The position numbers were made by a program, and so were the translations under genes. Source: an uncultured delta proteobacterium (GTDB lineage Bacteria > Desulfobacterota > Binatia > Binatales > Binataceae). From it: a stretch of 64,000 bases of DNA. Where the stretch lies: positions 192,001 through 256,000 of the forward strand of contig CAVRVY010000004.1 of assembly GCA_963724765.1 (NCBI GenBank). Direction: 5' to 3'. This document shows positions 34,466-39,016 of the stretch, in pieces. The notes beneath the pieces are model-generated. The model was given only the letters and a program-made list of their open reading frames with translations. It did no database searches and was not told the origin of the DNA. Every line of letters starts with the position of its first letter. Within the stretch, counting starts at the first letter, position 1.

Positions 34466-34551
34466 TCATGGCGGCGCCGGACTTACTGGAAACCCGGCCG
34501 GGATTTGCCCCGGCCAGCCGGCGGGCGGCAAGCCAGGAGGGCTTCTTTACG

Positions 34552-35394
34552 ATGGGCAGGTTAGACGGCAAGGTTGCGGTGATAACCGGCGCGGCGAGCG
34601 GGATGGGCCGCGCAGCGGCAATACGCTTTGCGGGTGAGGGCGCAGCGGTCGTGGTCGCCGACCTCAACGACGAGGGCGGCGCGGCAGCGGTGCGCGAGTG
34701 CAAGGAAAACGGCGGCCGCGCGGTCTTTCAGAAGACCGACGTCACCAGCGAGGCCGGGATCAAGGCGATGATCGATCGTGCGGTCAAGGAATTCGACCGT
34801 CTCGATATCACCTTCAACAATGCCGGGCTGCCCGGCGCGCTGGGATCGATCGAGCAGACCAGCGTCGAGGACTGGGATCGCACCTTTGCGGTGCTGACGC
34901 GCGGCGTGTTCCTGGGGATCAAGCATTCGGTGGCCGAGATGCGCAAAGTTGGCGCCGGATCGATCATCTCGACCGCGTCGGTGGCGGGACTGGCGGGCGG
35001 CTACGGCCCGCACGCCTACAGCGCGGCCAAAGCGGGCGTGATCAATCTCACGCGCTCGGTCGCGCTCGAGGTCGCCAAGGACAAGATTCGCGTCAACTGT
35101 ATCTGCCCGGGCGGAATCAACACGCCGATTTTCAACTTCCTCACCTCCGACCGCGAGATGACGGGCAAGCTGCTCGGCCCGTTGCATCCGCTGCGCCGCG
35201 CGGGCCTGCCCGAGGACATCGCCAACATGGCGCTGTTCCTGGCCAGCGACGAGGCGGAATGGATCACCGGAGTCGCGATGGTGGTCGATGGCGGGCTGAC
35301 GGCCGGACGCGACATCTTTGGCGATCCGCAGTTCGGCGGCGGGATGTACTCGGCCAACGTGTACGTCGGCCCGTCGTTCGAGATTAAACGCTAG
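34552..35394 (+). CDS. SDR family oxidoreductase
   Basis: TGAASGMG, NNAG, YSAAK; GGAGG RBS. Confidence 0.93.
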   Translation: MGRLDGKVAVITGAASGMGRAAAIRFAGEGAAVVVADLNDEGGAAAVRECKENGGRAVFQKTDVTSEAGIKAMIDRAVKEFDRLDITFNNAGLPGALGSIEQTSVEDWDRTFAVLTRGVFLGIKHSVAEMRKVGAGSIISTASVAGLAGGYGPHAYSAAKAGVINLTRSVALEVAKDKIRVNCICPGGINTPIFNFLTSDREMTGKLLGPLHPLRRAGLPEDIANMALFLASDEAEWITGVAMVVDGGLTAGRDIFGDPQFGGGMYSANVYVGPSFEIKR

Positions 35395-35679
35395 CGCCGG
35401 TTGTGCACGTGAGCAAACCGGGCGTCGGGCTTGATGCGTGGCCCTCGCGCAGGCGCTGGGCACAAACCATCATCGCCAAGGTGCCGTTCCAAGTTCCGCG
35501 CGGCACGCCCGAGCCGCGCGGCTGGCTCGTCGATAGGTTTCCGCGCTTTGCTACAGAAGAAGCCGTGCGCATGTGTTTCGATGCGTGGCTCGCGCGCCAA
35601 GCACCCACGCCCGATGGAGGGGCGAACTTGACACGCGAAATACCATGTCAACTGTGTACAGGGTGTGGGATAAATCCAA

Positions 35680-35957
35680 GTGGTTGACCCGAACGATCTG
35701 AGGCTCGCGCACAAGCACTGTTTCAAGAACCGTACGGAAGTGTTGGCAAGTGAAATGTGTGGTGCTTCTGCTGTTTGGACAATTATCCACCGTCACGTAT
35801 TTCCGAATGGACCATCTAGAGAGACGGGGAGCAGACCGCGCTATGTCCGATGTGCGGAACCGATTCTGTTACAGGTTTCGCTTCTGGATACCCAGTGACC
35901 ACGGAATGGCTCGACCGCATGGAAATGCGCTGGTTTGGCCTCAGGAGAGCGCGTTAA
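35680..35957 (+). pseudogene. Disrupted small Cys-rich protein (CGCFxC...TALCPxCGxDSV type)
   Basis: MVDPNDLRLAHKHCFKNRTEVLASEMCG, 1-bp frameshift near 35763, then CFCCLDNYPPSRISEWTI*RDGEQTALCPMCGTDSVTGFASGYPVTTEWLDRMEMRWF. Confidence 0.75.
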
Positions 35958-36030
35958 CGTTCCAGACGGCATCAAGGAGATACCTGAAGTAGACTCACGA
36001 AATATTATGTCTGCTTGCATACCCACCAGC

Positions 36031-36066
36031 GAAGAACGCGGCGGCCGATTCCGGCCCGCCGCGCTC
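36031..36066 (-). terminator. GC-rich hairpin downstream of paralog A (homologous hairpins ~36650-36682 and ~37688-37725)
   Basis: CGCGGCGG-ccgattccggc-CCGCCGCG stem conserved after all three paralogs. Confidence 0.6.
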
Positions 36067-36105
36067 ACTGATTGTTCAGACGCCTTGGAAAATTAACGCC
36101 CCGGC

Positions 36106-36477
36106 TCAGCTCATCTCCGATATCTTCCCTTTCCACGAGCGCGCGGCCAGGTCGATCTCGCCCTCAGAAGCGAACCTGCGGCCATCCGAGATCTGAGTAA
36201 AGCCCTGCGTGCGCCACCGGTGTTTCCCGATGCTTTCAGTGGTTCCCTGACCGAAGCCGGTGAGGCCTTCGCCATTGTCCAGGTATGCTACTGCACAGTC
36301 ACTGTAAGTCCCGCCTTTGGGACCGCCGACGTAAGTCGCGGTGAGGAAAACGGCTCCGAACCCCGTCGCCGTCCCTTCCCAATTCGCCTGCGCAAGTACG
36401 CTGCCTGCTGGCCCAGGACTGTAGGTGACCGTCACGGCCTTGAACGAAAATTCTCCTAACGCTTTACCCGCTGCCAT
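36106..36477 (-). CDS. Hypothetical 123-aa beta-rich protein, paralog A
   Basis: MAAGKALGEFSFKA...NWEGTATGFGAVF...AYLDNG...DLAARSWKGKISEMS; GGAGG RBS. Confidence 0.85.
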   Translation of the reverse strand: MAAGKALGEFSFKAVTVTYSPGPAGSVLAQANWEGTATGFGAVFLTATYVGGPKGGTYSDCAVAYLDNGEGLTGFGQGTTESIGKHRWRTQGFTQISDGRRFASEGEIDLAARSWKGKISEMS

Positions 36478-36710
36478 GTTCTTGTCCTCCCTTGCGTCGC
36501 TAAGATGCTTGGCTAGCTGTAGTCCCTTGCCAGGCTTAAGGCGAACGCGCAGTGCCCGCATAACTGGCTCTTGAAATATCATGTGTACATCCGTGGGCTT
36601 ATGGCTGTGCCACGCCCCGCCGCGAGCGGACACGCAAGACGCCAGCGAGAAGCGCGGCGGCCGATTCCGGCCCGCCGCGCTCACGACGCTCTCGAAAATT
36701 GACTCCCGGC

Positions 36711-37082
36711 TCAGCTCATCTCGAATATCGTCCCTTTCCACGAGCGCGAGGCCAGGTCCATCTCGCCCTCGCCGCGGACCCGACGACCGTCGGAGATTTG
36801 CACAAAGTTCTCCGTGCGCCACCGGTGTTTCCCGATGCTTTCATAGGTTCCCTGGCCAACTGCGGAGAGTCCGTCGCCATTGTCCAGGTATGCTGCCGCG
36901 CACCAACTGAAGGTCCCGTTCTTGGGGCCACCGACGTAGGTAGCCGTGGCGAAGACTGCTCCAAATCCCGTCGCCGTCCCTTCCCAATTCGTTTCCGCGA
37001 GGACGCTACCCCCCGGCCCAGGACTGTATCTGATGGTGATGGCCTTCAACGAAAATTCTCCTACCTGTTTACCCGATGCCAT
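36711..37082 (-). CDS. Hypothetical 123-aa beta-rich protein, paralog B
   Basis: Same length as A and C and aligns with them without gaps. Confidence 0.85.
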   Translation of the reverse strand: MASGKQVGEFSLKAITIRYSPGPGGSVLAETNWEGTATGFGAVFATATYVGGPKNGTFSWCAAAYLDNGDGLSAVGQGTYESIGKHRWRTENFVQISDGRRVRGEGEMDLASRSWKGTIFEMS

Positions 37083-37457
37083 AGCTTGTTCTCCCTTACG
37101 TCGCTAAGACGTTAACCAGCCCTATTCCTATGCCAAGCTTAAGGCGAACGCGCAGTATGCCCATAACGGGCACTTGAAATATTATGTCATCCGAATCGAA
37201 CACGTTCGGCGAGAGGATGACCGCCTTCTAGCACAGTTGCAAAAGGACCATAACCTTTGTTGGCTATTTCGTTATTGTTGGGAGGGTTGTCTTCAGTCGC
37301 GCCGGTCTTCTGATATCGCGCTTATGATGGGTGTGATGAGCATCCCAGGGGGTCATTATTATTTGCCTGCGCTGGCATCGCGAGCGGCGTAGTGGCATTT
37401 AGGTGAGACACTTGGTACGCGAAATACTATGTGAATTTGGCGAGATACCCATAGTTC

Positions 37458-37628
37458 ATGATACTCAAGGCATGCTGCATTTGCGGCCGCTCCGCTATGT
37501 TCGAATCTTCAGCATACGATTCACATTGTGAGAAGCACAGGAAGCATTGGGATCGTTTGATAAAAATGGATTTGCAGATGTTCGCAAGACTCGACCGCGT
37601 CGAAGGCGTCGGCAAAGGTCTGCGGTAG
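37458..37628 (+). CDS. Small 56-aa ORF with possible CxxC...CxxH Zn motif
   Basis: MILKACCICGRSAMFESSAYDSHCEKHRKHWDRLIKMDLQMFARLDRVEGVGKGLR; nearly fills the interval between two dif-like sites. Confidence 0.5.
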   Translation: MILKACCICGRSAMFESSAYDSHCEKHRKHWDRLIKMDLQMFARLDRVEGVGKGLR

Positions 37629-37755
37629 ACGAGTTGAAGAGACCACCTTGATGCACGAAATATTATGTATGCTTGCTATCCGCCAGCGAAAAGCGCGGCG
37701 GCCGATTTCGGCCCCGCCGCGCTTCACTGACGCTCTGGAAAATTGACGACCCGGC

Positions 37756-38127
37756 TCAGCTCATCTCGGATATCGTCCCTTTCCACGAGCGCGAGGCCAG
37801 ATTGATCTCGCCCTCAACAGCCATCCTTCTGCCATCCGAGAGCTGAACAAAGCCCTTCGAGCGCCACTGGTGTTTCCCGGCGCTTTCAGTGGTTCCCTGA
37901 CCGACGCCGGTAACAGAGTCGCCATTGTCTAGATATGCTATCCCACAGTCACTGTAACTTCCGCCTTTGCCGCCGCCGACGTAAGTCGCAGTGGCGAAGA
38001 CTGCACCGAACCCCGTAGCGGTCCCTTCCCAATTGGCATGCGCCAGTACGCTGCCTGCAGGCCCAGGGCTGTAGCTCACCGTCACGGCCTTGTACGAAAA
38101 TTCCCCTAATGCCTTACCCGATGCCAT
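37756..38127 (-). CDS. Hypothetical 123-aa beta-rich protein, paralog C
   Basis: MASGKALGEFSYKA...NLASRSWKGTISEMS. Confidence 0.85.
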   Translation of the reverse strand: MASGKALGEFSYKAVTVSYSPGPAGSVLAHANWEGTATGFGAVFATATYVGGGKGGSYSDCGIAYLDNGDSVTGVGQGTTESAGKHQWRSKGFVQLSDGRRMAVEGEINLASRSWKGTISEMS

Positions 38128-38315
38128 ACGCTTCCACTTCCTTCGCGTCGCTACGACGCCAACCAACGCTACTCCTATTGCTCGGCTTTAAGCGAACGCG
38201 CAGTGCGCTCATAACGGGCGCTTGAAATATTATGTCTACATCTGTGGTACCATACCTGACCGACGCGCGTTCGTATGCAATGCCAGAAATCAAGCCTACG
38301 CGCGGAGCACCGCGC

Positions 38316-38491
38316 GAGATCCTTCGACTCCGCAGCTCTCACTCGGGATGACGCCGTGAGGCAAATTCGGTTCAGGGTGACCCTGAGCGGTAGCCGCCGT
38401 CCAGAATGACCGAAGAGGGGGACTCGCTTCGTTCAAAAATTCACCAACTCTCAGGATGCTGAAGAGACGGACTCGCGTTGCTCAGGATGAC
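38316..38491. repeat. Cluster of decayed CTCAGGATGAC-type palindromic repeats
   Basis: GAGATCCTTCG..CTCGGGATGAC, GTGACCCTGAGCG, CAGAATGAC, CTCAGGATGC, GCTCAGGATGAC. Confidence 0.65.
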
Positions 38492-38593
38492 CTGAAGGGG
38501 TGGAATAAACGGTGGCCAAGCGGTGGTATCGAAAAAACCGCTTGACCGATCCCGCGCAATTGCGATGGGATGGCGTCCAACAGGGAGGAGATC

Positions 38594-39016
38594 ATGGCGG
38601 ATTTCAAAAAGATCAACGGCGCATGCTTTTGCGGAGAGAACCAGTTCGAGTTGACCCAGCCCGCAGTGGAAATGCATCACTGTCATTGCTCGATTTGCCG
38701 GCGGCTGCAGGGCGCGGCGTTTGTCACCCTCGCGATTTTTCCCCGCGCCGGCTTTCGCTGGACCAAGGGCGGCGACCTGCAAACCTTTAGCAGCTCAGCC
38801 CAGATTCATCGCAACCGATGCAAGAACTGCGGATCCACGCTCACGGTCGATGTCGATCCGATGCCCGACGTGCTGATAGTCACCCGCGCCAGCCTGCCGG
38901 CGGACGCCGAGCCCGGATATCCGCCCGCCACTCTGCGCCACGCCTATTGGCCCGACCATGTGCCGTGGGTGGAATTGGGCGACAAGCTGCCGCGCGTTGC
39001 CGGCTTCGATAAGTAA
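38594..39016 (+). CDS. GFA/CENP-V family protein
   Basis: GACFCG, CHCSICRR, RCKNCGS; GGAGGAG RBS. Confidence 0.92.
   Translation: MADFKKINGACFCGENQFELTQPAVEMHHCHCSICRRLQGAAFVTLAIFPRAGFRWTKGGDLQTFSSSAQIHRNRCKNCGSTLTVDVDPMPDVLIVTRASLPADAEPGYPPATLRHAYWPDHVPWVELGDKLPRVAGFDK

Follow-up and report, generated by a model that had tools for sequence, protein, structure and literature searches.

Which recombinase acts on a row of dif-like sites that is accompanied by no recombinase gene? This question is raised by positions 35626 to 38240 of a 64-kb stretch of DNA (the window; contig C4, positions 192001-256000) from an uncultured delta proteobacterium. The window belongs to a 5.4-Mb metagenome-assembled genome (MAG) of four contigs, designated G000, in which C4 is a chromosomal contig of 1.75 Mb; the host lineage inhabits soil and peat. 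Positions without a contig name refer to the window, and related genomes are given by their G numbers. A first-pass annotation had described seven direct sites with an 11-6-11 organization in this segment and had proposed an Xer-type cassette array. Comparison with related genomes and metagenomes supports this proposal. Judged from sequence, the sites are probably accessory dif sites, which are substrates of the host recombinases XerC and XerD and delimit cassettes devoid of a recombinase of their own. The observations behind this reading are the anatomy and rarity of the sites, a spacer identical to that of dif, cassette limits at the spacers, one base-exact natural recombinant junction, covariation in one other genus, an inversion polymorphism and the absence of a local recombinase.

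Array sites and the chromosomal dif

Direct readout of the window returned all seven 28-bp sites letter for letter as they had been quoted, all on the plus strand. They are listed below as XerC-side arm, spacer and XerD-side arm, together with their weight-matrix scores.

35626..35653, plus strand: accessory dif-like site 1, ACTTGACACGC-GAAATA-CCATGTCAACT, 30.4 bits
35988..36015, plus strand: site 2, left limit of p123 cassette 1, AGTAGACTCAC-GAAATA-TTATGTCTGCT, 30.0 bits
36562..36589, plus strand: site 3, AACTGGCTCTT-GAAATA-TCATGTGTACA, 26.9 bits
37165..37192, plus strand: site 4, AACGGGCACTT-GAAATA-TTATGTCATCC, 42.3 bits
37410..37437, plus strand: site 5, ACTTGGTACGC-GAAATA-CTATGTGAATT, 27.7 bits
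37646..37673, plus strand: site 6, left limit of p123 cassette 3, CCTTGATGCAC-GAAATA-TTATGTATGCT, 28.8 bits
38213..38240, plus strand: site 7, final array site, AACGGGCGCTT-GAAATA-TTATGTCTACA, 39.7 bits

The spacers start at positions 35637, 35999, 36573, 37176, 37421, 37657 and 38224, and re-measurement of the core-to-core distances gave the same 362, 574, 603, 245, 236 and 567 bp as before. All seven spacers are identical in 6 of 6 positions (GAAATA), in line with the invariant core noted earlier. The 12-mer GAAATAYYATGT was counted 7 times in the window, compared with a mean of 0.00 in 100 dinucleotide-preserving shuffles. Every copy belongs to an array site and no further one was found elsewhere in the 64 kb, which confirms an impression gained by eye. 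The lower GC content of the array was likewise reproduced (56.2%, compared with 64.8% for the window). The array is located between uvrC and uvrB, more precisely between genes for a short-chain dehydrogenase (SDR) and a GFA-family protein, without any plasmid context. Short public contigs from four studies span sites 1, 3, 4, 5+6 and 7 with 0 differences, demonstrating that the array is not an assembly artefact and that its arrangement recurs in nature. An Rfam scan of the array gave no match.

The true dif of the host was found as a single copy at C4:185887-185914 on the minus strand. Its sequence, GCTTCGCATAA-GAAATA-TTATGTCAACT, displays the textbook order of XerC arm, spacer and XerD arm by comparison with the E. 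coli dif. It is located at the peak of the cumulative GC skew of C4 (180-185 kb), where the skew changes from positive values (up to 180 kb) to negative ones (from 185 kb). The array is found at a distance of 42 kb from dif and in the opposite orientation. Comparison of the array sites with dif, which had been suggested as a check, revealed that the full 6-bp GAAATA spacer and the inner XerD arm (TTATGT) are equal. The same canonical dif is present once in each fetched terminus locus from 10 relatives in the genus, and CGCATAA-N6-TTATGT is single-copy in 36 of 41 family genomes (35 of 40 without the unpublished G049). Among the genera of the family the dif spacer varies and reads GAAATA, GAGATA, GATATA, GAAACA, GAAGTA and others.

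Genes for both recombinases reside on other contigs. The XerC-like gene (C3:1107052-1107933) scored 306 bits with TIGR02224 and 267 bits with TIGR02225, the XerD-like gene (C2:373047-373922) 316 bits with TIGR02225 and 288 bits with TIGR02224, both just below the equivalog cut-off. TIGR02249 gave only weak secondary matches to these two proteins. None of the 15 PF00589 matches of the genome falls into the window, the nearest ones on the contig being at C4:56516 and C4:630152, and no recombinase family was found among the cassette open reading frames (ORFs). The description of the array as recombinase-free, with XerC and XerD encoded elsewhere in the genome, therefore stands.

A motif acting at ordinary promoters would be expected throughout the genome, whereas the dif-like motif proved to be rare. 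Only 14 exact copies of the 12-mer exist in the whole host genome, one of them being the true dif, and 11 of the 14 lie within 55 kb of dif; the reversed-pattern control gave 0. Across 17 genomes of the genus, 0 to 14 copies each were counted and the control was 0 in all 17. A weight matrix trained on 27 sites from other genomes only and applied with a threshold of 18 bits returned 15 matches in 5.4 Mb versus 1 in the reversed genome. These comprise the seven array sites (26.9-42.3 bits), dif, three more sites beside dif, three elsewhere and one half-site. The exact copy at C1:579390 was rejected as a genuine site. It is probably due to chance, given that the weight matrix did not recover it. 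Two orphan accessory sites were observed far from dif and outside the window, at C2:291729-291756 (32.8 bits) and C3:91619-91646 (26.1 bits). The former carries an XerC arm of the type associated with the 123-amino-acid (aa) genes of the array, for which we use the working name p123, yet no p123 gene adjoins it.

Alignment of 40 distinct accessory 28-mers showed how the two arms relate to dif. Six XerD-arm positions were fixed by the search pattern. The five outer positions, which lie outside the pattern, gave CAACT and thus equal the dif arm (C in 29, A in 20, A in 20, C in 31 and T in 20 of 40 sites). Including the six fixed positions, the XerD arm equals that of dif at at least 8 of 11 positions in 36 of the 40 sites. 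The XerC-arm consensus AACTGGCACTC has A1, T4, G6, C7 and A8 in common with dif.

Accessory sites were found as direct repeats on the XerD side of dif in G000, G003, G004, G005, G014 and G016. In G020, a member of another genus, the dif spacer reads GAGATA, and so do the spacers of one accessory site sequence present on two contigs and of two sites with one mismatch; two accessory sites of G020 are direct and positioned downstream of its dif. G014 harbors three accessory sites with GAAACA beside a GAAATA dif, the match to dif being confined to the XerC side of the spacer.

The well conserved XerD arm next to a weak XerC arm, as well as the accumulation of 11 of 14 exact sites within 55 kb of dif, would also suit a role in chromosome organization, with the sites acting as near-terminus XerD-binding sites and their position at cassette edges being secondary. 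XerD sites reportedly unload SMC in Bacillus subtilis (Karaboja et al. 2021, a reference given in PMC12322038). As a full explanation we consider such a role quite improbable. It accounts neither for the end of cassette homology at the spacer (see below), a type of break point that indicates recombination, nor for the full spacer identity with dif, both changing together in G020. Furthermore, the locus is free of sites in 5 relatives, and unloading would hardly require seven sites within 2.6 kb. SMC unloading and recombination at the accessory dif sites are compatible with each other.

The surroundings of dif displayed additional features. Insertion sequence (IS) elements of the IS1595 family (PF12762 and PF12760 transposase, 2.5-3.2 kb) begin 3-7 nucleotides (nt) past the XerD arm of dif in constant orientation, in the host genome outside the window at C4:181066-185879 (L036 9066-13879) and also beside dif in relatives. 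Of 13 genomes examined, 9 show the insertion clearly and 2 others with a truncated or variant end. Target duplications of 8 bp take in the last 3 nt of the XerD arm (ACTTGTGG, ACTTGCCC and ACTACACG), and tandem copies represent repeated insertion into the same target beside dif. These elements parallel the IS1202-family 'dif hunters', which according to PMC10132070 sit 5 bp from the XerC arm, but they belong to another IS family and adjoin the other arm. Moreover, a 53-bp module is present in two copies that are 79% alike (C4:176563-176615 and 181006-181058; L036 4563-4615 and 9006-9058). It consists of an inverted XerD arm, 19 nt and CAGTTGCRYGA-GAAATA-TTATGT, a site type also found in G013, G015 and G016. 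Prior to the IS insertions, the XerD arm of dif and the inverted arm of the module formed a 13-nt palindrome. Module and palindrome may be the attachment structure of a single-stranded element.

Cassette limits and cargo genes

The host genome has five p123 genes. When their cassettes were aligned in site orientation, homology extended from GAAATA-TTATGTCTGCTTGC to AAC[GA]GGC[GA]CTT-GAAATA, and the DNA outside was unrelated. The p123 copy on contig C3, which retains one site only, agrees with the dif-linked copy as far as the first spacer base, and the G006 copy matches window positions 37653-38236, which corresponds to the region from site 6 to site 7. Cassettes encoding p135, a 135-aa membrane protein, again have their limits at the spacers (four copies in three genomes). 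A metagenome scan for the p123-type junction returned five contigs. Two of these, L103 and L105, are identical at 215 of 217 positions up to the spacer end and at 60 of 206 past the spacer, diverging after TTATGTC; a separate record, L104, is identical to L103. L103 and L105 represent one cassette end joined at the site to two different neighbours. The earlier claim that the sites delimit cassettes thus held in the host genome, in relatives and in metagenome contigs. Site 7 and a G004 site were also compared but not counted among the clean break points, since the clear identity on the right of the spacer is accompanied by faint similarity on the left.

The cassettes contain the following features.

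35680..35957, plus strand: Cys-rich reading frame (pseudogene), cargo of cassette 1, with one frameshift and one in-frame TAG
36106..36477, minus strand: p123 paralog arr1, 123 aa, intact; closest relative at the SDR-GFA locus of G001
36652..36680, minus strand: GC-rich hairpin directly 3′ of arr2 and part of the cassette, terminator-like by eye
36711..37082, minus strand: p123 paralog arr2, 123 aa, intact; closest relative in the dif-linked array of G005
37458..37628, plus strand: 56-aa ORF with Cys and His residues, cargo of cassette 5, no family
37756..38127, minus strand: p123 paralog arr3, 123 aa, intact; closest relative in the dif-linked array of G006

The previous account of five intervals with an ORF or pseudogene and one remnant is a fair description: the five hold the three p123 genes, the broken Cys-rich frame and the 56-aa ORF, and ORF inspection of interval 4 (245 bp) gave no convincing gene. 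A family search with the last 45 aa of the Cys-rich frame found none. No family was assigned to p123 by Pfam, NCBIfam or PADLOC, a p123 profile gave one weak match among PDB sequences (E 0.015, a designed protein), and all 412 homologues are unnamed. The cargo is diverse and includes p123, p135, p88, an acetyltransferase of the GNAT type, one GYD and one DUF4412 protein and small proteins that are secreted or membrane-bound. Cassette order differs as well, being p135-p88-p123 in G014 versus p88-p135-p123 in G001. Hairpins similar to that of arr2 follow arr1 (near 36040-36068) and arr3 (37693-37722); a consensus terminator scan of the array was negative because these 3′ hairpins lack a T run. 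In the p123 5′ regions (36478-36561, 37083-37164 and 38128-38212), a conserved perfect hairpin, GCGTCG-NNN-CGACGC, directly precedes the ribosome-binding site; it has no Rfam match.

With three related genes in one array, ordinary tandem duplication has to be considered, in which the 28-mers would be a promoter, operator or terminator element of p123 and the extra sites products of chance or decay. Sites 3, 4 and 7 are indeed positioned approx. 95 nt upstream of the three p123 start codons, sites 2 and 6 just past 3′ hairpins, and the minus strand of the site reads TAATAT, similar to a -10 box. However, a scan of the array region for sigma-70-type promoter consensus sequences found none, the cassettes at sites 1 and 5 are unrelated ones, 28-mers of the same type also flank cassettes whose genes are unrelated, and the motif equals dif. 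The paralogs are also old: nucleotide identity is 75-85% with dN/dS values of 0.25-0.37, and each gene is nearer to a copy in another species than to its neighbours. In a tree of 27 rows they fall into three separate clades, arr1 being sister to the copy at the G001 SDR-GFA locus (support 85/92), arr2 to the copy in the dif-linked array of G005 (96/90) and arr3 to that of the G006 dif-linked array (100/99), G006 having an empty SDR-GFA locus. Each sister copy thus belongs to another species, and in 2 of 3 cases to another locus. Since the array p123 genes belong to three old clades, they did not arise by recent tandem duplication, and this explanation appears very remote.

A further p123 clade without sites occupies a conserved locus in six genomes. 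This resident gene (loci L042, L045, L049, L054, L056 and L058 of six relatives) has the 5′ motif CTTAAGGC[GA]AAC in common with the cassette copies and nests beside the cassette clades in the tree. The sequences contain hints that cassettes were born from the resident p123 gene, or the reverse.

The SDR-GFA locus and the 42-kb inversion

The surroundings of the array comprise three features.

34468..35394, plus strand: SDR gene, left chromosomal flank
35403..35600, plus strand: gene fragment between the SDR stop codon and site 1, corresponding to aa 166-230 of a 278-aa ORF in the dif-linked array of G016 (83% identity)
38570..39016, plus strand: GFA-family gene, right chromosomal flank

In three of five outgroup genera (G020, G063 and G044) uvrC and uvrB are 2-6 kb apart, indicating that SDR beside GFA is the old arrangement. 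The gap between both genes is site-less in five genomes of the genus (G002, G003, G006, G009 and G013) and holds sites on the strand opposite to dif in three (G000, G001 and G004). The gap of G011 also holds sites; its contig lacks a canonical dif and was thus left out of the orientation count. A comparison of this locus across strains, as suggested by the first-pass annotation, showed that the sites are missing in 5 relatives; the outer edges of the array yielded no base-exact alignment to an empty site.

In G005, G015 and G016 the 42-kb segment from dif to the SDR-GFA locus is inverted, and GFA adjoins the dif-linked array. In G005 and G016, SDR adjoins the DNA that is found across dif in the host genome; G015 provides the GFA-side junction only. 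Two decayed sites persist at the SDR junction of G016. Both inversion end points fall into the two arrays of opposite orientation, which is what recombination between inverted sites would produce.

Two further observations concern the flanks. The 278-aa ORF of G016 weakly resembles rolling-circle replication initiators (PF23343 25.8 bits with a cut-off of 27.8; phrog_3419 E 0.0023). Window positions 38297-38352 correspond to a repeat of about 55 nt similar to repetitive extragenic palindromic (REP) sequences, which every relative of the genus contains many times, which occupies the variable intergenic regions between SDR and GFA and which reaches a summed contig depth of 128-287 in peat metagenomes.

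Several results weigh against the interpretation of the sites as Xer-recombined accessory dif sites. The accessory XerC arms equal the dif arm at just 1-6 of 11 positions (mode 4), and the inner XerC arm consistently reads C-T-Y instead of T-A-A, with C at position 9 in 35 of 40 sites. Because of this poor match and the consistently different inner three positions, binding of XerC is not assured. Many cassette-flanking sites in relatives are decayed, and therefore most copies may be fossils. In the remaining genera, extra 12-mer sites do not exceed the control rate, so that spacer covariation rests on one other genus. Homologous recombination acting on inverted paralogous cassettes is another possible source of the 42-kb inversion. 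The array lacks clean outer edges: homology with relatives ends at the SDR stop codon (35398) and restarts at 38533, site 1 is flanked on the left by a truncated gene fragment with off-spacer break points, and a base-by-base comparison with empty SDR-GFA loci had to be abandoned, the intergenic DNA being repeat-rich and unalignable. Sites 3 and 7 have 18 nt in common on their right sides (T[TC]ATGT[GC]TACATC[CT]GTGG), a stretch longer than an 11-nt arm would account for. Finally, no circle, excision or deletion junction at a spacer was found in Logan contigs from four runs (150-577 nt, depth 2-6). These contigs display the arrangement of the window itself and a few off-spacer joints, one with a shared word of 31 nt and others with sides of 21-40 nt. 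The joints 37769->36725 (a 31-nt word shared by paralogs) and 36466->38212 (side 25) resemble k-mer or alignment artefacts and were taken as evidence neither way.

The deviating inner XerC arm might mirror the preference of another protein. A dedicated tyrosine recombinase encoded elsewhere could act on the sites in place of XerC and XerD and copy the dif spacer only since its elements target dif, and the 15 PF00589 matches leave room for such an enzyme. However, no recombinase gene is present in the window or travels with the cassettes, and none was found to co-occur with the arrays, although no systematic co-occurrence test was made. Moreover, XerD arm and spacer follow dif across the genus and in G020. 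A dedicated enzyme is therefore unlikely, and the host XerC/XerD pair remains the favoured candidate.

Proposed mechanism and comparison with known systems

If the sites are accessory dif sites, a cassette would be the DNA between neighbouring sites, 236-603 bp in length, with one small gene that has its own 5′ region and 3′ hairpin. Each site would be a hybrid, receiving its XerC-side arm from the left and its XerD-side arm from the right cassette. We infer that XerC and XerD do the cutting; strand exchange would occur in or beside the common GAAATA spacer, which equals that of the chromosomal dif. Cassettes, presumably existing as circles, would enter at dif, where the sister arrays are direct, IMEX-like (see below) and on its XerD side. 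The array of the window would then be a secondary one, 42 kb from dif and inverted, which was seeded and later supplied through inversion or exchange with the dif-linked array. Recombination between these two arrays, which are oppositely oriented, would flip the 42-kb segment and transfer cassettes between the loci. The variant inner XerC arm (C-T-Y instead of T-A-A) is a candidate brake against resolution of the direct repeats at each division and would slow the reaction enough to keep them stable.

More tentatively, these steps may add up to a 'dif-integron', an integrase-free general cassette platform on which the essential XerC and XerD pair captures single-gene circles at dif, a tuned, weakened XerC arm retains them as direct-repeat arrays, the flip of the 42-kb terminus segment shuffles them between two oppositely oriented arrays and new cassettes are born from resident chromosomal genes. 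This wider scheme is conceivable but falls short of being probable. If it is true, Xer cassette systems would be an old and widespread alternative to integrons rather than a peculiarity of Acinetobacter plasmids. The locus already offers three visible natural experiments: the spacer varies together with that of the host dif, one recombinant junction is precise to a few bases, and the arrays delimit a polymorphic inversion. It would be a tractable system for studying how direct dimer-resolution repeats are tolerated near the terminus and how cassettes arise without an integrase.

Work on Xer-bounded modules has so far been confined almost entirely to Acinetobacter plasmids, in which they disseminate antibiotic resistance, and integrative mobile elements that exploit Xer (IMEXs) are known as phages or islands. 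A literature search, in which most subscription journals were outside the coverage, did not turn up any account of single-gene Xer cassette arrays in direct orientation outside Acinetobacter and Vibrio.

IMEXs lack their own recombinase, carry a dif-mimicking attachment site, are integrated by host Xer proteins and form direct tandem arrays beside dif, according to PMC12715192 and PMC9765430. We compared CTX-phi, TLC-phi and VGJ-phi of Vibrio, the gonococcal genetic island and LME-1 of Legionella. Like these, the array has no recombinase of its own and its sites mimic the host dif, the XerC arm partly. The dif-side sister arrays of G000, G003, G004, G005, G014 and G016 fit the direct IMEX layout outlined in PMC12715192. 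In contrast, the known IMEXs comprise phages, satellites, plasmids and islands, are several kb in size and carry genes for replication or morphogenesis, whereas the units described here comprise 236-603 bp and one small gene. Furthermore, the array of the window is inverted and 42 kb off dif, although sister arrays with the same cassette types are located at dif. An Xer-activating factor such as XafT was not identified, no profile search having been aimed at one.

The dif modules of Acinetobacter are small gene modules between 28-bp XerC-6-XerD sites that occur in rows, also on a chromosome (PMC12907356). Sites of the pdif type recombine when their spacers are identical, and inversion takes place between inverted ones (PMC13141974); IS elements home in on the module sites (PMC10132070). 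The array shares with these modules, or 'dif module islands', the 28-bp XerC-spacer-XerD boundaries. In Acinetobacter, however, C/D and D/C sites alternate, resulting in inverted flanks, whereas all seven sites of the window and those of the relatives' arrays are direct, as the first-pass annotation had pointed out in setting the array apart from inverted pdif modules. In addition, the array is chromosomal, lacks a Rep_3-type plasmid context and resistance genes, belongs to an uncultured delta proteobacterial MAG lineage and has a site spacer equal to that of the chromosomal dif.

Integrons, including clusters of attC sites lacking integron-integrases (CALINs), have in common with the array rows of single-gene cassettes, diverse and mostly unknown cargo, a GC content below that of the flanks and hybrid junction sites, and CALINs also the absence of an integrase beside the array. 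The attC sites are folded, long imperfect palindromes of 57-141 nt with conserved R and L boxes and GTTRRRY cores. Compared with this description, the sites of the window are 28-bp duplex 11-6-11 dif mimics, and the cassette genes occur in either orientation, each with a 5′ region of its own. A housekeeping pair would act as the enzyme in place of IntI. As neither attC sites nor IntI are present, the array is not an integron, and the distinction drawn earlier from attC integrons is justified.

Although the array thus resembles IMEX arrays as well as the dif modules of Acinetobacter, it does not fully belong to either group, because it is located off dif, its units are far smaller than known IMEXs and its sites are direct instead of alternating. 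In this unrelated, uncultured lineage from soil and peat, a chromosomal array of minimal one-gene cassettes, integron-like in character, appears to be operated by the host Xer machinery.

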